A DNA stretch of 32,000 nt from Promethearchaeota archaeon (GCA_030606485.1 JAUWGH010000004.1:30001-62000); one strand, 5' to 3'. Shown: positions 4,931-18,865, counted from the stretch's first letter. Made by a program: numbers and translations. The notes: generated from the letters alone by a model not told the origin.

Positions 4931-6220
4931 TTATTTTTTCGTCAAATACCATAGCATTACATGGAAGCCCCAGCCTATTCCCCATCCTCCTATTGCAATA
5001 GCACTCCATAGGAAATTGGGAGAATATATTAAGTTGAGTAAGACTAGATAAATACTTGTGACAATATAAACTACTGTATGGAGAACTAATGTTTGGAGAA
5101 GGAAGCCCGTGATTGGTCTCTGGACAATGAAGAAAAAAACTCCGTGAACGGCTACACCAATAAGCCAACCCATTATTGGATGAACTATTAAAGTGGGATC
5201 TAAACCTAGACTCGTAAAATTTATCCCAATGAATATTATACCAACAATGTAGATAAATATATGAGCTATCCAAGACCATTGCCAGAATATCAATTCAACT
5301 GCTTTCGAATGTATTTCAAAATCTTCGAGTTCTTCCCTAGATATACTTTTGGCATGTTCGATTGCTTTTGGTAAGATCGAATCCCATTTATAGGTAAGAA
5401 ATGCATGTATTACAATGGCAATTGCCCACAACACGAGAGGATATGTTGCCAAGAATATTGTAATTTCCGGGAAATGCATTAAATTGTAAATAACAAGCCA
5501 GATATTGATTGCCGCATATGCAATAATATGAAATATTAACCCTAACATAACTGGCTTTTGAGTTTCCACGAAATTGAAAACATAATAACTAAGTACATGC
5601 AGACCGACGATAATTCCCCAAGTAATTGAGTTTTCAATTTGATTTTGTAAGTTGACAGGAAGTGTGATTGTGTATATTAGGATAGTAACAACAATGAATA
5701 ACGCTAAGTGAATTATTAGGAACCAGAATTGAGACAGTTTTGAATTAGCCATCCTTTTCAATCGTTTCTCCGAGTAATCATACTTTCCACGGATTTTAGT
5801 CATTTCCTTCTCAAAATAATTTTCCCATGTGAAGAAGCCGATAGTATGGAAAATAAAGGCTACACCCCATATTAGTAAAGGCCAAGTGAACCAGATTTGA
5901 ATTGGTATAGTCGAAAGATTAAGTATCATCAAATAAATGTTAACTGAAATAAAGAAAAATGCGTGATAGATATATAGAATGCCGAAGTCAGATTGTTCCT
6001 TTATTTTTGTAAGATATGCAACTTTATCATTATATAATAGATATGTTATCGCATGAAAGCCTATACCGAATCCCCAGCCGAATATGACATGCAATGGCCA
6101 GAAGTATCCTACCCCAGTGACTGCCCATATAATCGTTACTAATCCTATTACGGCTAAATATGCAAATAAATGGAGAACAAATAGGATTCTACCTGTGTTT
6201 CCTTTTATTAAACTACTCAT
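4931..6220 (-). CDS. Polytopic membrane protein made of six tandem 2TM-like repeats
   Basis: Six units of the pattern H(l)xxY/F...W(G)xxxxxH separated by short loops or basic/charged linkers; about 12 TM helices. Confidence 0.75.
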   Translation of the reverse strand: MSSLIKGNTGRILFVLHLFAYLAVIGLVTIIWAVTGVGYFWPLHVIFGWGFGIGFHAITYLLYNDKVAYLTKIKEQSDFGILYIYHAFFFISVNIYLMILNLSTIPIQIWFTWPLLIWGVAFIFHTIGFFTWENYFEKEMTKIRGKYDYSEKRLKRMANSKLSQFWFLIIHLALFIVVTILIYTITLPVNLQNQIENSITWGIIVGLHVLSYYVFNFVETQKPVMLGLIFHIIAYAAINIWLVIYNLMHFPEITIFLATYPLVLWAIAIVIHAFLTYKWDSILPKAIEHAKSISREELEDFEIHSKAVELIFWQWSWIAHIFIYIVGIIFIGINFTSLGLDPTLIVHPIMGWLIGVAVHGVFFFIVQRPITGFLLQTLVLHTVVYIVTSIYLVLLNLIYSPNFLWSAIAIGGWGIGWGFHVMLWYLTKK

Positions 6221-6438
6221 TTTTTTAATACCTTTTTTTTATTAGATTAAAAAATATTGGATATGTCGTATTTATAGATGTTATTATATAAAATTAATAG
6301 TTATTTTTTATAATATTTAATAAGAATATTGTGAGATTTTAATAATATGATAATGAAATATTGAGGGGTTTGATAGTATTATTATGTAAATATTAAGGAA
6401 TTTGATAATATTATAATAAAATTTTGAGAAGGTAATTT

Positions 6439-7497
6439 CTAAGAATCCCAAAAACCCCTTTTTTTTAGATATCTTCCCAAATAAACTAAGCTTAGCATGA
6501 CGGGAACTTCCCAGAATAACCCCATGGTCGTACCAAGTGCCGCTACCGAACCCACACCGTACATGATAATAGCTGTGGCAATAGCAATTTCAAAGTGGCT
6601 TGAAGAGCCAATAATAACTGTTATGATTGCTTCTCTATATTTCATTTTGAAGAGTTTTGTAATTAGTATGTTGTAGCCAACTACAATCACAAATCCAATT
6701 AATAATGGGATTGAAACTAATATTAACAAATCTGGATTATTAATCAATGCATTTCCATTCAATGAAAAAAGAACAACCAAAGTTGTCAATAGTGCAATAA
6801 TAGAAATTTTTCCAACAAATGGCCGATAAGTAACATTAAACCATTCTACTCCCTTGAAATTAATTAACAATCTTTTACTGACTATACCTAAGAATAATGG
6901 AATTCCGATAAAAAATAACAATGAGATTAATAAAAGTACCCAATTAATGGGAATATTTTGAATCCCTGTGAGTAGTGTAACGATGGGAACATAAAGAAAA
7001 ATTATTGTGATTGTATTCAAACTCGTATTAACCACATTTTGTTCTTGATTACCTTTTGCCATATAACCCCATACTAGAACCATTGCTGTGCAGGGCGATG
7101 AGCTAAGGAGAATAACCGCAACAATTAGCTGTTCATTACCGATTAAAAATAGATTTACCATTACTAAACCTACTATAGGAGCGATAACCCAATTGGATAA
7201 AATCGTCAATATTATTGGTTTGGGATTTTTTCTTAATTTTTTTAATTCTGATGCTTGTAGATTTAACATTGCGGGATACATCATTAAGAATAAGCAGATG
7301 CCAATTGGGATTGAAATACCCTGAATTTGCCAAGAATTAATCGCTTCACTTATTCCAGGAATAACTTGAGAAAAAATAACCCCAATGAACATGCATAAGG
7401 CAACCCAAATTGGAAGATATTTTTCGAAAAAACTGATTCCTTTAGATCCTTCTTCTATATTTTCCATATCTGAACTGTTTTCAGTTCCTATTACCAT
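6439..7497 (-). CDS. acr3: ACR3-family arsenite efflux transporter
   Basis: LFLMMYPAM, WVIAP, SPCTAMVLVW (conserved Cys), SSHFEIAIA, WEVPVM; divergent from ArsR. Confidence 0.92.
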   Translation of the reverse strand: MVIGTENSSDMENIEEGSKGISFFEKYLPIWVALCMFIGVIFSQVIPGISEAINSWQIQGISIPIGICLFLMMYPAMLNLQASELKKLRKNPKPIILTILSNWVIAPIVGLVMVNLFLIGNEQLIVAVILLSSSPCTAMVLVWGYMAKGNQEQNVVNTSLNTITIIFLYVPIVTLLTGIQNIPINWVLLLISLLFFIGIPLFLGIVSKRLLINFKGVEWFNVTYRPFVGKISIIALLTTLVVLFSLNGNALINNPDLLILVSIPLLIGFVIVVGYNILITKLFKMKYREAIITVIIGSSSHFEIAIATAIIMYGVGSVAALGTTMGLFWEVPVMLSLVYLGRYLKKRGFWDS

Positions 7498-7623
7498 GAT
7501 TCTTCAAATTGATTTATTTATTTTTTTTTGATAAGATCCTTATATCTAAAAATATGAGTTCAGATTTAAATTTGTCGATTTGAATTCAAAAAAATTATTA
7601 GTCATCATTTTAATACTATAATT

Positions 7624-7974
7624 ATGGAGTTAAAACATGAAGAAGAACTTAGGCGTTTAATCGAATGCGTTGGAATTGATAAAAATATTATTGAATATAT
7701 TGAAGAACTAAAGAAAAAAAGAGATTATATTTTATCTAGAAAAGATTTTGAAGAAAAATTATCACTTCATAACGCACTCGGACATAAAATTAGATATTTA
7801 ATTTATAATTTAATAAGACAAAAAGAAATGTGCATATGCGAGTTAAATGCGATTTTAGATTTAACTCAATCAACAATTTCCCATCATGTAAAAATTTTAG
7901 AACAAGCAGGTTTGATTATTGGGATTAAAAGCGGGAAATTTACCCATTATCAAATTAAAAAAGAAATTGATTAA
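7624..7974 (+). CDS. arsR: ArsR/SmtB-family repressor with alpha3 CxC arsenite-type site
   Basis: EMCICEL...LTQSTISHHVKILEQAGLI winged HTH; divergent from acr3. Confidence 0.9.
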   Translation: MELKHEEELRRLIECVGIDKNIIEYIEELKKKRDYILSRKDFEEKLSLHNALGHKIRYLIYNLIRQKEMCICELNAILDLTQSTISHHVKILEQAGLIIGIKSGKFTHYQIKKEID

Positions 7975-8024
7975 ATTTTTTGAACGATTTAAAAATAAAA
8001 ATTTTGATATAGGTCAATAATATA

Positions 8025-9059
8025 TTATATAAAGTTAATAAAAATAAAAAGAATAAATAGAATTGCTAAAATCATTCCATCTTTTCTTTTCAAAGATCCA
8101 GTTCTTACTTTTAAATTAAAGAAGATTATTACTACTGAAAATAAAATCCAATTCCATATTAAATTCCAGCTAAATATAATATTCCTAGCGATTATACTAC
8201 TCACGCCAAATGTAATCGTTAGATTCCAAATTAATTTACCGATCATACCCCCTAGACCAATTTCTATTATATTTTTTTTGAGAGATTTTATTATTAGAGT
8301 CAATTCTTCGACATTTGTTATAAAACCAATTATAATGAATCCAAAAAATGCCTCGGATATACCAGTAAGATGAATTAGTTCAGCAGCTGCAATGATAAGC
8401 ATTTCTCCTCCTACAAAAATCAGTGTAAAACTAAGAATAATTAAGATGAATATTTTTATTTTTGAAGTTTTTTCACTTTCATCAAAATCATCTTCATTAT
8501 CTTTTAAAAAGTCAATTTCTGCTTTTTGATCTAATATTTTTTCTTTAGAAAAATGCTTGAAGTTCCGAAATAAGTAAATAGCATATAAAAAAAGAAGGAT
8601 AATTCCCGAATTGAAAAGTCCAAAAGGAATTAGAACTCCAAATAAAATAGCAATTGAGCAAGAATAAATTAACCAAAAATAAAATTGAGAAACAATTTTT
8701 AATTTTACTTCATAATAGAGAGCAGGTATCGCGAAACATAATGTTAAAGCGATTATGGAATTTCCGATAACATTTCCTACTGCAATATAGGGAAGTCCAT
8801 TGATTGCGGCAATTATTGAAGCAATTGATTCCTCTGGATCTATACCCAATACTATTAGTCCAATTATGAACGGAGAAACTTTATAAATTAGACATAAATC
8901 TTTCAAATTATCAATAAAAACATCGGCGGAAAAAAAAATAATTAAAAATCCGATTATGAATATACTAAGCCATATTAAGATTTCCCACACAATTAAAAAA
9001 AATGAGGTAAAGATATAAATGTTACGACCTTTTGGAATAAAATCTTTTAGTTTATTCAA
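8025..9059 (-). CDS. CaCA-superfamily (YrbG/NCX-like) cation antiporter with atypical alpha repeats; start uncertain (TTG)
   Basis: Two homologous halves with GIDPEE...VGNVIGN and ITNVEE...GGMIGKLIWN at the alpha-repeat positions; about 10 TMs. Confidence 0.8.
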   Translation of the reverse strand: MNKLKDFIPKGRNIYIFTSFFLIVWEILIWLSIFIIGFLIIFFSADVFIDNLKDLCLIYKVSPFIIGLIVLGIDPEESIASIIAAINGLPYIAVGNVIGNSIIALTLCFAIPALYYEVKLKIVSQFYFWLIYSCSIAILFGVLIPFGLFNSGIILLFLYAIYLFRNFKHFSKEKILDQKAEIDFLKDNEDDFDESEKTSKIKIFILIILSFTLIFVGGEMLIIAAAELIHLTGISEAFFGFIIIGFITNVEELTLIIKSLKKNIIEIGLGGMIGKLIWNLTITFGVSSIIARNIIFSWNLIWNWILFSVVIIFFNLKVRTGSLKRKDGMILAILFILFIFINFI

Positions 9060-9160
9060 TTTTTTATTTTTCAGAACATTTTACGCAAAATATGTTATTA
9101 GAAAGAGATTTCACTCACAATTTTAATGAAGCTTAAATATTAAAAAAAAAAGAAATTTAA

Positions 9161-12100
9161 TTATTCTATAACTTCCATCTTAACTCCATGGTGTTCTGGG
9201 ATAGGTTGCGCACCACAAGAGGCTCCCATCCAACACACCAATTGATCTCCCTCTTTATGCATGGGTTTCCCACAATGCATTGGGAGTTCCATTATTTCTC
9301 CACATTCGGGACACTTCAATTTTCCCATAGTTATTTCACTATCTTTTTGTTTAATTTTTTCTTTTATAATTTTACCTTCTTCCTTTTTTATATATTTTTC
9401 TGAGTTATTTTTAAATTCAATTTCACACGATTTATTGCAGAAATAATATTTCTCCCCTTTATATTCATATTCGATTGACTCACTTGGCTTTATTTTCATA
9501 CCACAGACGGGATCAGTAACTAATTCTTTAGATTCAGGTTTTTTATACATTAATTTTGGATCCATATGCTTATAATCCGCATATTTTTCAGGATTAGTTT
9601 TAAACTCTGTCTCACAAGATGAACTGCAGAAGAAAAATTTCTCACCCTTATATTCATACTCAATTGATTGACTTGGAATTATTTCCATTCCGCAAATTGG
9701 ATCGATTGCTTTCTTTTCGATTAATAATTTTTCTTCTTGAATTTGTTGTTCAGTTCGCGGATCGAATCGTTTTAGGAATAATGCATTAGTGACGACCGAA
9801 ACCGAGCTTGACGCCATAAATACAGCGGCCATATATGGTGGTAAGAAAAATCCCGTTAATGCATAAAGTACGCCCGCAGCCATAGGGATTCCTATGATAT
9901 TATAAATAAATGCCCAAAATAAATTGGTTAGCATTTTTCTATATGTTTTTTTAGATAACCTAATTGCCGAGACAACGTTTCTTAAATCTCCTCTCATTAA
10001 AACGATATCTGCAGTCTCAATAGCTACATCAGTTCCGCTTCCTATTGCAATTCCAACATCAGCTTGTGCTAAGGCAGGAGCATCATTTATACCATCTCCA
10101 ACCATTGCAACGATGTTACTTTCATTCAATTCCTGTGTAGATTTTACGGTTTTTGCTTTCTCATTAGGCAAAACCTCTGCATATATATGGTTTTCATCAA
10201 AATCTAATTCCTTTCCTATACTTAAAGCTGTTTGCCTATTATCACCGGTAAGCATATATAGCTGGATCCCCATTTCTCTTAATTCATTAAGGGCATATGA
10301 TGCTTGATCTTTGACTTTATCTGAGATTCCAATGATACCTCTAATTTTACTATCGACACTTAGCAATATGGTAGTTATTCCACTATTTTGTAATTCCTTA
10401 AATTTGTTTTCAAATAGACCTAAACCAATTTTATTATCAAGTATTAATTTTTCATTACCAATCAAAACTTTCAAGTTATCAATTGTTGTTTCAATACCTT
10501 TTCCAGGTACTGCATTAAATTCTTTTGGTTCATTTAAGTCAATCATTTTTTGATTTGCTTCTTCAATAATTGCTTTTGCAATTGTATGTTCTGAGCCCAA
10601 TTCTGCGCTTCCTGCAAAGTGAAGTATTTCTTTTTCAGTAAATCCAACTTTTTTTAATTCCTTTTCCGTTACAATTACAGAAACCTTAGGTTTTCCAATT
10701 GTTAATGTTCCCGTTTTATCAAATATGATATTATTAACATTATTTATTGCTTCTAATGAATCACCACCTTTTACTAATATACCAATCTCTGCTCCTTTTC
10801 CAGTTCCAACCATCACTGCAGTCGGAATTGCTAAACCTAGCGCACATGGACAAGCGATAACAACAACAGAAGTGAAAACTAATAAAGACGTTTCAAGACC
10901 AAGCCCCCCAATAAAAAACCAGAAAAGAAAAGCACCAAGAGCAACAATAATTACTATCGGTACGAAATAATTGCTCACTTTATCAGCTAATTGCTGTTTT
11001 GCTGCTTTTTTACTCTGTGCCTCCTTCACAAAGTCGATAATCTGAAATAATAATGTATCTTTTCCAACCTTTTCCGTCGTCATTTTAATTAACCCAGTTT
11101 GATTAACTGTCGCTCCAATAACCTCATCTCCCAACGTCTTTTTAGCATAAACGCTTTCCCCAGTAATCATTGACTCATCAATTTTTGTTTTTCCTTCGAT
11201 GATTTTTCCATCTACCGGAATTTTCATTCCTGGTTTCACTATTAAAATATCTCCAACCTCAATTTCTTCAATTGGAATTTCTAATTCTTCACCATCCTTT
11301 AAGATTATTGCAGTTTTCGCTTGCAAACCAATTAATTTTTTTATAGCTTCAGATGCCTGACCCTTTGCTTTATGTTCAAGATATTTACCCAATAACAGAA
11401 ATGTCAAAATCATACTCATGGCTTCATAGAATGTCTTACCTGGGATAAAAAATGTGGTCAATATTGAGTATATGTAAGCCGTCCCTGTTCCCAATGAGAC
11501 CAGTACATCCATATTGGTCGATTTATTTTTAAGAGATTTATATGCCCCTATAAGGAAAAAAGATCCTCCAATCGCAAAATTAGTACTTGCTAGGAAAAAT
11601 AAAATTAGTTTAATTGTAAAAGAAGGCTCCACAAACCAACTAATTGGAGTTATAATTAACGAGAGAATAGCAGATGTAATAAATCTATTTAATCTTTTTT
11701 TCTGTTCCTTTTGCTGAACTTCAAATTCCTTGTCAATCACACCAGCGGATTTTTCTATTTTATAACCAAAATTCCTAATTGTAGATATTAATTTTGATTC
11801 ATTTATTTCAAATTCATTAAATTCAAGGAAAACTTTTTTTGCTTGATAATTCCCACGAATCTCATAAATTCCTTTTATATTTTTTGCGTTTTCTATTAAA
11901 TTATCAAAGTTTTTCTCTGAAATATCATCGGTGATTACAACATCAATTCTCGAAAGATTCGCTCGATATCCTAAATTGATTATTGCCTGGCGAAATTTAA
12001 AGAAATCAACTTTGTTTGGACTATATTCTATATTTGCTTCCTCATTAGCAAAATTTACAACAGATTTTTCAACACCATTTAGAGATCTTAATTTATTTTC

Positions 12101-12395: not shown

Positions 12396-12689
12396 ATGAC
12401 AGAATCGAAAATTCCAATTATTATTACTAAAGAAGGTTGTCACCGGTGTGAAGAATTAGAAGCTTGGCTAAAAGAGAATAATGTTAATTATATTCACCAA
12501 GACATTGAAGATAAGGAATTTGTTCAACAATTGTTGCATGATCCAAATTTTACAGGCACTTTTTGTGATGTTGATGGCTGTATTGTAAATACTCCTGTTG
12601 TTATACACAAGGGGAAATATTGGTTCAAGGAACTGTGGGGTATCTCCGGATTACGAGAAAGAGAGGCTAAAAAACTCTTTTTAGATTAG
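12396..12689 (+). CDS. Glutaredoxin/NrdH-like protein
   Basis: TKEGCHRC (CxxC), cis-Pro motif NTPVV, 97 aa. Confidence 0.8.
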   Translation: MTESKIPIIITKEGCHRCEELEAWLKENNVNYIHQDIEDKEFVQQLLHDPNFTGTFCDVDGCIVNTPVVIHKGKYWFKELWGISGLREREAKKLFLD

Positions 12690-12703: not shown

Positions 12704-13318
12704 TTATAATTTTAAATTTTTTTCTTTTAATTTTGCCATTTTATTGACTACTTTTTTAATAGCTCTTAGGCCTTCTTCGTCTTTCTCAACACCTTTTTTT
12801 CCTAGATCTTCTGCCCATAAGCAAGCACCTAAATTTGCACCAAAAGCACCACCAGAAACCGTAATTATGCCATTTTGTGTATAAAAGTCCAAAATTGTTC
12901 TAATGGCAGGTTCTTGACCTCCATTCCTATCTCCCCCAACTGCTAATGCTATTCCAATCTTATCCCAGAAAACTTCAGACTTTTTGGCAATTAATGCTCT
13001 ACAACGGTCCATAACTGCTTTTAATTGTGCAGATAGATTCCCTTGAAATACTGGAGTTCCAAATAAAAAATATTTTGCGTTTTCTAACTTGGGATAAAGC
13101 TCCTGTAAATCGTCTTTTTGTACGCAACCCTTTTTCTCCCGAATACAATAATCGCAATGGGTACAAAAACCAATTTTCTTTCCTCTGACAGTCCAAAATT
13201 CTGTTTCGAATCCAAATTTCTCAGTGGCATAATTTAAGGCATATCTTACGGAGAATTCTGTAGCTTGATTTCTTGGGCTGCCGCATATTCCTAATAACAA
13301 GTTTTTATTTTCAACCAT
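12704..13318 (-). CDS. Iron-sulfur flavoprotein (Isf)/flavodoxin-family protein
   Basis: GSPRN FMN-binding loop, CTHCDYCIREKKGC (CX2CX2CX6C), GTPVF, GGDRNGGQE. Confidence 0.88.
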   Translation of the reverse strand: MVENKNLLLGICGSPRNQATEFSVRYALNYATEKFGFETEFWTVRGKKIGFCTHCDYCIREKKGCVQKDDLQELYPKLENAKYFLFGTPVFQGNLSAQLKAVMDRCRALIAKKSEVFWDKIGIALAVGGDRNGGQEPAIRTILDFYTQNGIITVSGGAFGANLGACLWAEDLGKKGVEKDEEGLRAIKKVVNKMAKLKEKNLKL

Positions 13319-13413: not shown

Positions 13414-14070
13414 ATGATGGATAAAAATAAACCGAGTTTAGCAAGGATTAGGATAAAATTTCCAGAACAATTATGGATCTCCGAAATTTCTAAAAAATAT
13501 ACCGATGTAAAAATTGACATATTAAATTTTTTGCCGTATGACTTTGAAAAATCCGTTGGAAACGCGATAATTGAAATTATTCACTATAAAATTGAACAAA
13601 TTATAGAAGAAATAAAAAATCATCCATCAATTTTCGAATTTAGTATTTTAGAGAGAGAAGAAAATAGAGTTCAATTTAATGTCAAAACAAAAGATCCCTA
13701 CTTACTGTACGGTGTTATTAAATGTGGGGTGCTTATTAATTTTCCCGTTAGAGTACGAGAGGGATATGGGGTCTGGAAGATTATATCAACCAGAAAACGA
13801 ATAGACGATCTACTTACGCTGTTTGAAGAGAAAGATATTAATTTTTCACTACTGCGAATTGGAAATTCACCTTATAATCTTGATGATGATAAGAATAAAT
13901 TAAGTTTCCAAGAATCAGAAATTCTCAATAAAGCAATTAATTTAGGATTTTTCGAAGTTCCGAGAAAAATATCCTTAGAAGAATTAGCAAACCAACTTGG
14001 AAAATCAAAATCCACACTTTCTGTTATGCTTAGAAAAATAATTAAAAAAAAGGTATTGTTTGAGGGTTAA
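13414..14070 (+). CDS. Archaeal Bat-type (HTH_10) transcriptional regulator
   Basis: C-terminal EILNKAINLGFFEVPRKISLEELANQLGKSKSTLSVMLRK is the typical HTH_10 pattern. Confidence 0.85.
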   Translation: MMDKNKPSLARIRIKFPEQLWISEISKKYTDVKIDILNFLPYDFEKSVGNAIIEIIHYKIEQIIEEIKNHPSIFEFSILEREENRVQFNVKTKDPYLLYGVIKCGVLINFPVRVREGYGVWKIISTRKRIDDLLTLFEEKDINFSLLRIGNSPYNLDDDKNKLSFQESEILNKAINLGFFEVPRKISLEELANQLGKSKSTLSVMLRKIIKKKVLFEG

Positions 14071-14903
14071 ATTTTCCCCTGTCTTAAGATATTTCCATCA
14101 CGCCCTATTATTGTTTCCTCTATGGTTATCTTCCTATTAATTTTTGCAAATATCGGATCTAAGAACAATTTGATTTTCTGGCAGCAAGGAACATCCATCA
14201 AGATAAAATTAATCTTTTCAATAGGATTTAAATCCAAAATCTGTTCGAATTTTTCTAATTCCGTTTCGCTAAAGCTTAACATTGGACATACTGTAACTAT
14301 TGGCTTACCTTTTAAGAGTTTTCTATGAAAATCCCCGAACGCGAAGGGGGCGCAGTCAGAAACAAAGAGTAATTCTTTATTGTTGAAAAATGGAGCACTT
14401 GGATTTACTAATGTTAGTTTTGTTGGCCATTGTCTCAAGGCAGAAGGAATTTCTCCAGAGACATCTGATTCTTCCCATACATTATCGTACACTATAGTAC
14501 TTGCCGAAGGGCAAGAGCATTGTTGAGTGTGAGCAGAATAGCCATGAGTTACATGAGGGGTTTCTATTAAAACCTCTTTTTTTATAATTCTTAGATATTC
14601 CTCGGTTACCTCCTCGTCGAATTCAAAAGATTCTCGTTCTTCAATCGTTAATGCGCCTTCAGGACATTCACCAATGCACGCACCAAGTCCGTCACAATAT
14701 ATTTCGCTTACTATTTTTGCTTTCCCATCAATTATTTTTAACGCACCTTCAGCACAAGCTATGACACACTGTCCGCAACCAGTACATAAATCCTCATCAA
14801 TCTTAATTATTTTTCTAGTTACTTTTTGTTTATTTTTTATTTCCGTCATGCTAATAATTAATAGAAACATGAGTGTTTTATTTTTTATTGCGAACATGTT
14901 CAT
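14067..14903 (-). CDS. Ferredoxin-domain Fe-S protein (alternative starts 14897 or 14849)
   Basis: CTGCGQCVIAC and CDGLGACIGECP, plus CSCPS, LRQWP, DC and VPCC motifs typical of a family seen in anaerobes. Confidence 0.85.
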   Translation of the reverse strand: MNMFAIKNKTLMFLLIISMTEIKNKQKVTRKIIKIDEDLCTGCGQCVIACAEGALKIIDGKAKIVSEIYCDGLGACIGECPEGALTIEERESFEFDEEVTEEYLRIIKKEVLIETPHVTHGYSAHTQQCSCPSASTIVYDNVWEESDVSGEIPSALRQWPTKLTLVNPSAPFFNNKELLFVSDCAPFAFGDFHRKLLKGKPIVTVCPMLSFSETELEKFEQILDLNPIEKINFILMDVPCCQKIKLFLDPIFAKINRKITIEETIIGRDGNILRQGKI

Positions 14904-14928
14904 TCTCCTTTACCTTATTTAAATCAAA

Positions 14929-16203
14929 ATGATATATTTCAAAATTTTAATATTTATAACAGTAATTCTAAAAAAGCAAAATATGAATATTTATAGTATG
15001 AAAGTAATTATTATCGGTAATGGAGTCGCAGGTACATTTTCTGCTCAAAATATTAGAAATATTGATAAAAGCGTAGATATTAAAATAATAACTGAAGAGA
15101 AATATCCGTATTATTCCAGACCCAAATTACCTGAATTTATCTCTGAACAAGTATCAATCAACGATATTATGGTTTTTAGAGAAGATTGGTATAGGAAGAA
15201 AAATATAAAATTAATTTTAGCAAGGAAAGTTTTAGGAATTCATCCAAGACAAAAGCACCTCCTTCTTGAAGATCAAAAAGAATTCATTCAATATGATAAG
15301 TTAATTATTGCAACTGGAAGCAAACCTAATATTCCTCCAATTAAAAACGCAGTTGAACTATTAAAAAAAGGAGTTTTTACTTTACGCAATATTGATGATG
15401 CCATAGAAATACAGAATTATATTAAAGTAAATAATACTAAGAAGGGGATCATAATTGGGGGGGGTTTATTGGGTTTAGAATTGGCAAAACAAATCAAAAA
15501 TTGCAATCTTGACACAACGATAGTTGAATTTTTTCCAAGGCTTTTACCTCGTCAATTAGACGATGAATGCGCAGAGATGTTAAAAGCTGAAATTGAAAAA
15601 ATGGGAATAAAAGTTATATTAAATGCTGCAACTGAGGAAATTTTAGGAGCTGATTCCGTTGAAGGAATAAAGATAAAGAATGGACCTGAAATTAAAGCCG
15701 ATACTGTATTAATTCAAGCAGGAATAAGACCAAGAACCGAGCTAGCAGAAAAAGCAAAAATTCATCAGAATCGAGGTATTATTGTCAATGAATTTTTACA
15801 AACAAGCGATAAAGACATTTTTGCTGTTGGTGATGTGATAGAATACAAATCTCAAACATGGGGGATAATTCCTGCCTGTATTGAGCAATCAAGAATTGTT
15901 GCAGCATCAGTTTTAAATAAAGAAGAGATTCAATATAAAGGAACTACTCCAAAAACCACTCTAAAAATTGTTGGAATTGATTTAACGTCTATAGGAATAT
16001 TTGATCCTTCACAAGAAGAGGATATTGGATGGGAGATTCTAAAAAAAGTTGATCAAGATAATTGCTGCTATCAAAAATTCGTTTTAAAGGATAATAAATT
16101 AAAAGGAGCAATTCTTTTTGGAGAAACAAAATCAATTCCATTTGTAAATAAGAATATAAACTTAAATGTTAATAAAGAAGAGATTAATAAATTATTAGAA
16201 TAA
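14929..16203 (+). CDS. FAD-dependent NAD(P)H oxidoreductase, NADH:rubredoxin oxidoreductase-like (likely start ATG 14998)
   Basis: GNGVAG, ATGS, GGGLLGLE, AVGDV; lacks the BFD/siroheme domains of NirB; a rubredoxin gene lies directly downstream. Confidence 0.85.
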   Translation: MIYFKILIFITVILKKQNMNIYSMKVIIIGNGVAGTFSAQNIRNIDKSVDIKIITEEKYPYYSRPKLPEFISEQVSINDIMVFREDWYRKKNIKLILARKVLGIHPRQKHLLLEDQKEFIQYDKLIIATGSKPNIPPIKNAVELLKKGVFTLRNIDDAIEIQNYIKVNNTKKGIIIGGGLLGLELAKQIKNCNLDTTIVEFFPRLLPRQLDDECAEMLKAEIEKMGIKVILNAATEEILGADSVEGIKIKNGPEIKADTVLIQAGIRPRTELAEKAKIHQNRGIIVNEFLQTSDKDIFAVGDVIEYKSQTWGIIPACIEQSRIVAASVLNKEEIQYKGTTPKTTLKIVGIDLTSIGIFDPSQEEDIGWEILKKVDQDNCCYQKFVLKDNKLKGAILFGETKSIPFVNKNINLNVNKEEINKLLE

Positions 16204-16334
16204 AAACCAAAATCCTTGTAAAAATAAAACAATAAATATCTATTATTTTGTTAATTTATAGTCTTAATATTTTTAATATTTAGAAATTTAAATTTCATAA
16301 AAATAAAATAGAAAATATACGAGGGGAAAAAACT

Positions 16335-16469
16335 CTGGCAAAGTATGAATGTACGGCTTGTGGCTATATTTACGACGAAGAAGCAGAAGGGACAAAATGG
16401 GAAGACCTTCCCGATGATTGGACATGCCCACTATGTGGAGTAGGAAAAGATATGTTTGAAAAACTTTAA
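16335..16469 (+). CDS. Rubredoxin, short form (44 aa), apparent CTG start; absent from ORF track
   Basis: (M)[43 protein letters not shown]; SD GAGGGG 8 nt upstream; no in-frame ATG/GTG/TTG after the TAG at 16281. Confidence 0.93.
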
Positions 16470-16668
16470 AATTAAAATTATTCCAAATTTTTTTTATTTT
16501 CTAAATTTTTTATTGTTTTTACTTATAGTAATCTTAGATATTAATTGTATTATTTATATTTGAGAAAAATTAAATTTATAATCAGTTTCTGAGTCTAATT
16601 AAATATTATTCAAAGTGAGAAATTCAAAAAAATAACTAATTGAAAAAATGGAATAAAGGTTTTAAGAT

Positions 16669-18069
16669 ATGGATTTTAATTTAACAGAGGCCCAAAAAGA
16701 ATTACAAAAAAAAACACGGGAATTTGCAATTAAGGAAATCTTGCCAGTAGCAGCTAGTTATGATGAGCATGGAAAATTCCCAATTGAAATTATTGAGAAA
16801 GCTAATAAAGCAGGTTTAGTGAATTTAGTAATTCCAAAAAAATATGGGGGACCTGGTTATGGTCTCTTAGAATCTGTTATAGTTGTTGAGGAAATTGCTG
16901 CGGCTTGTCCCGGGTTCGCAACATCCATATTCGCAAATAATTTAGGAGCAGAACCAATAATTTTAGGAGGAAATGAAGAACAGAAAGATAGAATACTAAG
17001 AGAATTAGTAAAAAAATTTACTTTAATTTCTTTTGCTACCTCTGAACCTGGAATGGGATCTGATGTTGCTGGAATTAAATGTCGAGCTCAAAAAGATGGA
17101 GAAGATTATATTTTAAATGGTACAAAGTATTGGATTACCAATGCAGGTTATGCAAAATATATTTCTCTATTTGCAACAGTGGATCCAGCAAAAAAACATA
17201 AAGGAATATGTGCTTTTATTGTACCAACTGATTTAGAGGGAGTTAAAACAGGAAATCCAATTCCTAAATTGGGGCATAGAGCATCAAATACTACTTCTGT
17301 GGTTTTAAAAAATGTAAGAATTCCAAAAGAAAATGTATTAGCTCCTCCAGGGAGAGGTTTTGTTTTAGCAATGCAAACATTTGCTCATACTCGTCCAGCT
17401 ATAGGAGGTTTTGCTACTGGTTTAGCAAGGTCCGCTATGGAATATGTGATTGATTATGCAAAAAAAAGAGAGACTTTCGGAAGGCCAATAGCAAATTATC
17501 AAGCTATTCAGTTTAAAATTGCTGAAATGTATAAAAATATTGAAGCTAGCCGATTATTAACCTATAAATCAGCATGGGAGACTGATCAAGGGTTAGATAA
17601 TACATTAAGTGCAGCATGTGCAAAAGCATTTGCCTCGGATATTGCTATGCAAGTAACTACTGAAGCTATTCAAATAATGGGGGGATACGGTTATATCAAA
17701 ACATATCCATTTGAAAAATTATTCAGAGATGCAAAACTATTTCAAATTTACGAAGGAACCTCTGAAATCCAAAGAATAATCATTTCAAGATTTGTGATGA
17801 AACAATATAAACATGTAATGCCAAATTTATTTGAACTCCCAAGAATTGAAGTAGAAAGAGAAGAAGAAGTTGAAATTCCATCAGTGTCATTATTGACTAG
17901 TGAGGAACTGGGAGGAAAATACAGATGCACAGTATGTGGATATATTTATGATCCTGTAAAAGGTGATCCAGATAGTGGAATCTCTCCTGGAACTCCATTT
18001 GAAGAAATTTCAGATGATTGGCATTGCCCCATATGTGGAGTTTCTAAAGATAAATTTGTAAAAATATAA
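16669..18069 (+). CDS. Acyl-CoA dehydrogenase fused to a C-terminal rubredoxin domain
   Basis: [44 protein letters not shown] (catalytic Glu); then [13 protein letters not shown]...[11 protein letters not shown] (17917-18069). Confidence 0.93.
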
Positions 18070-18307
18070 TTTATTCTTTTTTAAATATTAATTTTGTTTC
18101 TATTTAAATAAGAACTACTTTATTTATATTTTATTAGATTTTTTCGATTAGTAATTAAAGATTCAAACGATTTTAAAGAATATTTAATAGAAAATAAGGC
18201 TTATATTGAAATTCTCTCATTTCTACTTGTTATTAAAGCTTAATATTATGTTAAAATTTTATAAAATTTTATGATTTTACAATTAAAAAAAACAAGGAGG
18301 TAATATT

Positions 18308-18865
18308 ATGGATGTAAAAGAAGCTATAAACACAAGAAGAGCATATAGGTCTCTTGATCTTATTAAGATTACTGATGAACTTATTAAAGACCTAGCGGAA
18401 TCCGCACAAATTGCACCTTCATGCATGAATAAACAACCTTGGAAATTCATTTTTATCCGTGAAAAAGAACAATTAGAAAAAATATTTAGGACTCTCACTC
18501 CTGGAAATAAATGGGTTGAGAGAGCATCATTAATAATTGGAGTTTTTAGCAAGCCTAAAAACGATTGTATTCTTAAAGAACGATTATACTACTTATTTGA
18601 TACTGGTATGGCAACGGCTTTTATAATATTAAGAGCTACTGAATTAGGTCTTGTTGCTCATCCAATAGCTGGTTTTGATGAGGATAAAGTAAAAGAAATC
18701 TTAGGAATTCCTGATGATGTAAGGTTAATCACTTTAGTGATTATTGGCAAACATTCTAAGGAAATTAATCCTTTACTTTCAGAATTTATGAAATTGGGTG
18801 AAAAAAGCAGACCTCCAAGAATTCCATTAGAGAAATTTACTTATATCAATGAGTATAAATCTTAA
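18308..18865 (+). CDS. Nitroreductase-family flavoprotein
   Basis: RRAYR, APSCMNKQPWKF, FDTGMA...LRATELGL; strong SD AAGGAGG. Confidence 0.9.
   Translation: MDVKEAINTRRAYRSLDLIKITDELIKDLAESAQIAPSCMNKQPWKFIFIREKEQLEKIFRTLTPGNKWVERASLIIGVFSKPKNDCILKERLYYLFDTGMATAFIILRATELGLVAHPIAGFDEDKVKEILGIPDDVRLITLVIIGKHSKEINPLLSEFMKLGEKSRPPRIPLEKFTYINEYKS

Follow-up and report, generated by a model that had tools for sequence, protein, structure and literature searches.

An acyl-CoA dehydrogenase-rubredoxin fusion in a Lokiarchaeial redox island: a candidate electron-input subunit for oxidant scavenging

The Asgard archaea stand closer to the eukaryotic host lineage than any other known group, and how the strict anaerobes among them deal with oxygen is currently under investigation. 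One gene in a 32,000-nucleotide stretch of DNA from a Promethearchaeota archaeon (GCA_030606485.1, JAUWGH010000004.1:30001-62000; hereafter the window, numbered from its first nucleotide) may offer part of an answer. The gene (16669-18069, plus strand) encodes an acyl-CoA dehydrogenase (ACAD) that carries a rubredoxin (Rd) at its C-terminus, raising the question of where an ACAD with an Rd of its own delivers its electrons. The host is a Lokiarchaeial Asgard with a genome of 3.75 Mb in 13 contigs. The initial annotation of the window had proposed that acyl-CoA oxidation fuels the removal of oxidants via the tethered Rd, bypassing the electron-transfer flavoprotein (ETF). This proposal gains strong indirect support from the linkage of ACAD and flavodiiron protein (FDP) genes across the order and from the precedent of the bacterial BOOR (butyryl-CoA:oxygen oxidoreductase) system, and the fusion protein, P0001, is on balance probably the electron-input subunit of an acyl-CoA-driven oxidant-scavenging chain in Lokiarchaeia, the best reading being that of a putative ETF-domain-free archaeal counterpart of BOOR. 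The conserved architecture of the fusion, the linkage of the genes, a deletion of FDP in this genome and purifying selection on the fusion are observed directly, and the direction of flow, the substrate, the acceptors in this genome and the independence from ETF are elements of the chain that we infer.

The open frame of 466 codons has zero internal stops and its product matches four Pfam families, all well above curated cut-offs: Acyl-CoA_dh_N (PF02771, residues 6-115, 6.7e-31), Acyl-CoA_dh_M (PF02770, residues 121-216, 5.9e-23), Acyl-CoA_dh_1 (PF00441, residues 228-376, 3.8e-49) and Rubredoxin (PF00301, residues 417-463, 6.6e-23, scoring 80.9 bits where the cut-off is 23). The ACAD part (residues 1-378; 16669-17802, plus strand) has the complete three-domain fold of the superfamily (N-terminal alpha, middle beta, C-terminal alpha) and aligns over its full length with 1ukw, the ACAD of Thermus thermophilus (E 2.4e-118), and with the MCAD of pig and of human (E approximately 1e-111 to 1e-109), short-chain and butyryl-CoA dehydrogenases being poorer matches (1e-80 to 1e-88). 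The catalytic base, Glu362, lies in the motif IYEGTSEIQ, is aligned with the corresponding motif of 1ukw and is invariant in the 46 fused homologues (mean column identity 82%) from which the anatomy of the fusion was determined, with a mean column entropy across the ACAD domain of 0.54. The intact ACAD with its catalytic Glu in YEG and the complete C-terminal Rd that had been recognised in the initial annotation are both borne out. In the Rd (residues 418-466, occupying 17893-18066 on the plus strand together with the motif that precedes it) CxxCG and CPxCG are both kept, with C420, C423, C453 and C456 invariant among the 46 homologues, as are Y427, P429, G432, D435, P440, T442, K460 and F463 of the core, while F444 and W451 are nearly invariant. 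The domain belongs to the rubredoxin family, with iron binding predicted from the sequence, and together with a small free Rd encoded upstream it accounts for the only two true rubredoxin domains found genome-wide.

The join between ACAD and Rd is a 38-residue tether in three parts, in which a variable acidic spacer is held between two conserved segments. The anchor that follows the ACAD fold (residues 379-392; 17803-17844, plus strand) has Y380, H382, M384, P385 and N386 invariant, and KTSEELGGK (residues 409-417) is conserved ahead of the Rd. The spacer between them (residues 393-408; 17845-17892, plus strand), defined by entropy, alignment and AF2 pLDDT, has a mean entropy of 2.29 compared to approximately 0.5 for the domains, varies in length from 14 to 22 residues across the homologues and averages 5.8 acidic residues against 2.7 basic ones; the acidic linker EVEREEEVE noted earlier is found in P0001. 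In the AF2 model of P0001 (pLDDT 77, pTM 0.75) both domains are folded, with pLDDT of 35-50 in blocks spanning residues 341-400 and of 73-91 in ten-residue blocks spanning residues 411-466, the stretch from 340 to 403 being poorly modelled.

The closest proteins to P0001 are all from Asgard archaea (labelled Promethearchaeota, Lokiarchaeia or Thorarchaeota), with orthologues at 93-95% identity in three genomes of the same genus (G145, G146 and G147), and there are approximately 50 clusters of fused ACAD-Rd in Asgard metagenomes. Also in keeping with that annotation, the gene lies downstream of genes for NADH:rubredoxin oxidoreductase (NROR; 14929-16203, plus strand; Pyr_redox_2 2e-60, Rubredoxin_C 9.4e-16), which is syntenic in many relatives and there sometimes fused to Rd, and for the small free Rd of 44 residues (16335-16469, plus strand, with CTG at the Met position; PF00301 match at C2:46341-46457), orthologues of which (66-96% identity) lie upstream of an FDP gene in relatives.

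The indirect support for the proposed function comes mainly from what adjoins the gene in these relatives. The sample comprised 400 genomes of the phylum that were searched and 80 loci that were fetched, the genes of the window being mapped by tblastn and the neighbours identified by Pfam. In relatives a class-A FDP gene (ODP/metallo-beta-lactamase plus Flavodoxin_1, approximately 400 residues) lies 12-25 bp upstream of the orthologous ACAD, commonly in the order NROR (at times Rd-fused), Rd, FDP, ACAD, and all three same-genus genomes have Rd-FDP-ACAD-Rd. FDP is directly upstream in 12 of 26 true-Rd fusion loci, these three included, in 25-26 of 29 sampled unfused orthologues (approximately 393 residues, 72-77% identity to the ACAD of P0001), which have a free Rd gene upstream of FDP, and in 11-12 of 14 Asgard loci of a related 445-residue ACAD form described below; among more distant Asgard ACADs of other families (56-60% identity) it was a neighbour in none of nine. 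FDP-less loci still pair the ACAD with an Rd gene or domain (L170, L185, L064, L032-L039), and since Rd stays with ACAD where FDP is missing, Rd and ACAD form the constant core with FDP as the commonest partner. The idea that fusion of Rd promoted the loss of FDP (14 of 26 fused loci being FDP-less against 3-4 of 29 unfused) was considered and rejected as unsupported; on the tree the independent losses are similar in number, at least four in fused and three in unfused lineages, and the relatives are not independent of one another.

The proposed chain would begin with a short- or medium-chain acyl-CoA dehydrogenated at the FAD with Glu362 as the catalytic base, after which two electrons would pass singly to the Fe(Cys)4 site of the Rd, kept near the flavin by the tether. 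Reduced Rd would then hand electrons on to an oxidant reductase that depends on Rd; in most relatives this would presumably be the class-A FDP encoded 12-25 bp upstream, which would reduce O2 to H2O, with NROR and the small free Rd of the cluster providing a parallel, NADH-driven input. The acyl-CoA/enoyl-CoA couple (approximately -10 mV) has roughly the same potential as rubredoxins (approximately -60 to +30 mV), and it is the reduction of O2 that would pull the reaction. In the genome described here the likely acceptors would be an FDP paralogue encoded on contig C10 (C10:146513-147652), the free pool of Rd, or the superoxide reductase or rubrerythrin of the surrounding island.

The coupling of butyryl-CoA oxidation to O2 by ACAD, rubredoxin and flavodiiron proteins in bacteria, which the initial annotation had mentioned, has its precedent in BOOR. 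In Fusobacterium nucleatum BCR (an ACAD with an ETF-alpha domain and an Rd; FN1424) and the adjoining FDP (FN1423) are reported to act as a complex in which butyryl-CoA is oxidised and O2 reduced to water, and the system is also present in butyrogenic Firmicutes (Bystrom & Wolthers 2024, as described in PMC12288474 and PMC12630350); the same BCR architecture is given in a preprint (bioRxiv 10.64898/2026.07.15.738679). The Asgard system resembles BOOR in the C-terminal Rd on the ACAD, in the class-A FDP gene that abuts it in relatives and in a proposed flow without a separate ETF. It differs in that P0001 has the 38-residue tether in place of the EtfA C-terminal FAD domain between ACAD and Rd, with neither ETF_alpha (PF00766) nor any other domain found between residues 378 and 417. 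The ACAD is also MCAD-like by its best PDB matches, with a short- or medium-chain acyl-CoA as its presumed substrate, and the host is archaeal with NROR and a free Rd added to the cluster; the adjoining FDP has been deleted from the window but is kept by the three other genomes of the genus and by most relatives. Lacking the ETF-alpha flavin domain of BCR, P0001 is an analogue of BOOR and not a member, and the differing architecture suggests that the Asgard ACAD-Rd fusion is independent of the BCR fusion. A word-indexed search with the linker and Rd (129 candidates) returned Asgard ACAD-Rd proteins only and neither BCR nor any two-domain ACAD-Rd of bacteria, a result that may reflect the index.

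Other known systems share parts of this arrangement. The NROR-Rd-FDP chains of Desulfovibrio, Clostridium and Moorella likewise bring together NROR, a small Rd and (here in relatives) a class-A FDP, with Rd as the one-electron shuttle to FDP, superoxide reductase and rubrerythrin, but NAD(P)H is the sole input there while here the ACAD would be a second donor wired to Rd; NROR and Rd are both in the window, FDP being present in the genome only as the 44%-identical paralogue on contig C10. Canonical ETF-linked ACADs (MCAD; 1ukw; the MCAD-ETF complex 1t9g/2a1t) have the same full fold and YEGT Glu (E 1e-109 to 1e-118), whereas P0001 adds anchor, tether and Rd and its gene has FDP, Rd and NROR as linked genes in place of etfBA. 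In flavorubredoxin-type (class B) FDPs, too, the Rd is tethered to one of the chain's partners, and the Rd domains of FDP-Rd proteins of approximately 460 residues share 70-83% identity with the Rd core of P0001, but in those the Rd is on the acceptor and in P0001 on the donor.

The absence of FDP from the window is the result of a deletion. This genome (G000) and G147 are collinear in blocks of 93-95% DNA identity that are broken exactly at the FDP gene of G147, window 14964-16651 corresponding by blastn to 5089-6774 and window 16634-18078 to 7968-9413 of the G147 locus (L046), where FDP occupies 6785-7990 and ACAD-Rd 8003-9403, and tblastn with FDP found no match in the window. The deletion of approximately 1.19 kb, with its junction at 16620-16657 (plus strand) by blastn and three-way alignment, removed the FDP coding sequence apart from approximately the last 24 nt of the frame, which remain 12 nt ahead of the ACAD-Rd ATG, and kept the ribosome-binding site of ACAD-Rd and the Rd-FDP intergenic region, which is probably a promoter. 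In the three-way alignment the breakpoints fall in an A/T-rich imperfect repeat (ATTCAAAAA...) flanking the deleted block; in G147 one copy precedes the FDP start and the other the FDP stop, each by approximately 35 nt. As judged from the loci compared, FDP loss at this position arose independently in other lineages, the gene being missing also from G250 (which retains a 23-codon FDP remnant), G241, G246, G251, G278 and two unfused loci. The genome keeps one FDP paralogue, 44% identical to the operon type, while G147 has the operon type only and G145 has both. Since the dedicated FDP is deleted, the acceptor here must be another protein (the FDP paralogue, superoxide reductase or rubrerythrin). 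ACAD-Rd is under purifying selection after the loss of FDP, pairwise dN/dS against its kin being 0.17-0.21 over the full length and 0.11-0.14 over the Rd domain, values that do not exceed those between FDP-bearing kin.

Within the genus, FDP and a pair of genes downstream of ACAD-Rd are missing only from this genome. The latter, a 2.5-kb POR alpha/beta pair (2-oxoacid:ferredoxin oxidoreductase-like), follows ACAD-Rd in G145-G147 and is absent here (window 18079-18263 compared with L046). G147 is without the HTH_10 regulator and 4Fe-4S protein that are present here (window 13473-14963 compared with L046).

Two types of Fe(Cys)4 domain are found at the same ACAD C-terminus, namely the true Rd (PF00301) and a short rubrerythrin-type domain (PF21349) carried by the 445-residue form, which is 51-58% identical to P0001 over the ACAD part. 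This form shares an anchor motif with P0001 (VMPPLxDLP, within the wider MPxLxxLP), ends in WRCxxCG-x12-CPxC with four invariant Cys and in Asgard archaea mostly adjoins the same FDP orthologue, in one genus following an FDP 71-76% identical to that of G147; it differs in its short CxxC-x12-CxxC knuckle and shorter linker as against the full Rd of P0001. The unfused orthologues stop just past MPxLGKKR. In the tree of the ACAD part the unfused family members form one clade (99/100) in a polytomy with the fused lineages, with the 445-residue type as outgroup, such that a single origin and a single loss of the true-Rd fusion would both fit and cannot be distinguished. The 445-residue form is widespread, being present in Asgard archaea (L061-L063, L147-L157, L188-L191), Thermodesulfobacteriota, Syntrophales and Spirochaetes. 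The family is large, its sole annotation is 'acyl-CoA dehydrogenase family protein', and it appears to be uncharacterised.

As the initial annotation had stated, there are no ETF genes nearby, none being found in the window. The genome itself encodes ETF, which qualifies the proposed bypass, in two pairs elsewhere, on contigs C8 and C12. Each pair is immediately preceded by an ACAD paralogue of its own, and the closer of these two paralogues shares only 42% identity with P0001. It is from architecture and gene context that we infer the ETF independence of P0001.

Several observations weigh against the oxidative chain. The dedicated FDP partner is absent from this genome, 14 of the 26 true-Rd fusions are without an adjoining FDP, some of them relocated outside the redox island, and no FDP neighbour was found at five bacterial loci of the 445-residue type among the matches listed (L067-L071). 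In the AF2 model neither the tether nor the docking of Rd on the ACAD is placed with confidence, and direct transfer from FAD to Rd without the extra ETF-alpha FAD domain of BCR is hypothetical. The set of NROR, Rd and ACAD-Rd fits NADH-driven reduction of enoyl-CoA equally well, and this is the basis of the main rival to the oxidative reading, in which electrons run in reverse from NADH through NROR and Rd to the ACAD flavin and on to crotonyl-CoA or another enoyl-CoA, P0001 then being a non-bifurcating enoyl-CoA reductase and the chain a redox valve with enoyl-CoA as its electron sink. Alternatively, the module may be freely reversible and equilibrate the Rd pool with the acyl-CoA/enoyl-CoA couple. 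In favour of this rival, the genes for NROR and Rd lie immediately ahead of ACAD-Rd here, as in many relatives, exactly NROR-Rd-ACAD-Rd is left under purifying selection after the FDP deletion, and electrons moving from -320 mV to -10 mV run strongly downhill. Moreover, ACADs of anaerobes often act as reductases, as with Bcd/Etf (PMC12288474; PMC12630350). It is nonetheless FDP-ACAD, at 12-25 bp, and not NROR-ACAD that is the tightest and most conserved linkage, several FDP-ACAD loci being without NROR within 5-8 kb either side (L057, L060), and two ACAD-EtfBA operons are already available in the genome for enoyl-CoA reduction, for which reasons reverse flow is disfavoured; the characterised analogue, BOOR, works oxidatively, and we consider reverse flow unlikely.

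Less likely still is that P0001 is an ordinary ETF-dependent ACAD of beta-oxidation or amino-acid catabolism with the Rd as an accessory (as a structural metal-binding knuckle, in sensing O2 or redox state, or in oligomerisation). The domain is typically MCAD-like, with approximately 55% identity (by eye from the alignment) to the T. thermophilus ACAD, some fusions sit in non-redox contexts, the unfused orthologues, 72-77% identical and one clade in the polytomy, are compatible with loss of Rd, and ETF is encoded in the genome, but there each ETF operon has its own ACAD. An accessory role also sits poorly with an Rd that keeps its four Cys and invariant core and resembles the electron-transfer Rd of FDP-Rd proteins, with the free Rd and FDP genes that adjoin the unfused orthologues, and with the presence of two Fe(Cys)4 types at the same C-terminus together with the BOOR precedent. 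That ACAD-Rd is a functionless remnant heading to pseudogenisation after the loss of FDP is very improbable: FDP and the downstream POR pair have been deleted within the genus here only and the small Rd is without a canonical start codon, but the ACAD-Rd frame is intact with low dN/dS, the CTG start is also found in the FDP-bearing G147, many lineages retain ACAD-Rd without an adjoining FDP and this genome retains an FDP paralogue that G147 lacks. A broader form of the oxidative reading, which we put forward tentatively and hold to be less probable than the subunit role proposed above, is that ACAD and Rd, fused or adjoining, constitute an ETF-free acyl-CoA:rubredoxin oxidoreductase that arose independently of bacterial BOOR and charges the whole Rd pool, fuelling FDP, superoxide reductase and rubrerythrin without NAD(P)H; this would explain the repeated loss of FDP while ACAD-Rd stays conserved.

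If the oxidative chain operates as proposed, an ETF-free route fuelled by acyl-CoA would provide a sink for O2 and reactive oxygen species, saving NAD(P)H and returning enoyl-CoA to fermentation in the way that has been proposed for BOOR, and would place such a route in the archaeal lineage closest to the eukaryotes. An Asgard form without the ETF-alpha flavin domain would test whether the ACAD flavin reduces rubredoxin directly, and the natural variants (true-Rd fusion, rubrerythrin-type fusion, split and FDP-less) provide a comparative series for biochemistry. No literature was found that combines Asgard archaea or Lokiarchaea with flavodiiron proteins, rubredoxin or ACAD, and none on a two-domain ACAD-Rd, the genome papers of Desulfobacterium, Desulfococcus and Geobacter containing nothing relevant.

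The wider locus is a stress and redox island. Upstream of NROR, and identified by Pfam, are genes for a glutaredoxin-like protein (12396-12689, plus strand), an FMN reductase (12704-13318, minus strand), the HTH_10 regulator (13414-14070, plus strand) and the 4Fe-4S protein (14067-14903, minus strand), a set also found upstream of NROR at L050, L054 and L058, and the island also has YyaL/DUF255, IscU/IscS, DsrE/TusA, DnaJ/DnaK and OsmC. Genes for superoxide reductase (desulfoferrodoxin family; C2:63140-63400) and rubrerythrin (C2:63773-64171) lie 1.1-2.2 kb past the end of the window.

Non-canonical starts seem to recur in the small-Rd gene, with CTG also in G147 and ATG, GTG, ATA or ATT in other genera, each approximately 8 nt past a purine-rich stretch resembling a ribosome-binding site. 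In several relatives (L058 4788-6140 among them) NROR has its own C-terminal Rd (450 residues; PF07992, PF18267 and PF00301), and a gene for hybrid-cluster protein (prismane) adjoins the Rd-fused NROR. In genera with ACAD-Rd relocated outside the redox island, the genes that precede it encode tandemly arranged paralogues, Cys-rich proteins of 420-480 residues (L047 4702-7609, L049 5068-7884, L053 6536-7819, L065 4665-7796), which have no significant Pfam family and one sub-threshold C-terminal zinc-ribbon match, and are 42-57% identical between genomes. Downstream of ACAD-Rd in the window lies a gene for a nitroreductase-family flavoprotein (18308-18865, plus strand; PF00881, 1.5e-19), homologues of which (46-53% identity) adjoin the ACAD-Rd-like gene for the 445-residue form in closed genomes from this order (L189-L191), and the nitroreductase may be a further conserved partner of the ACAD-Rd gene.

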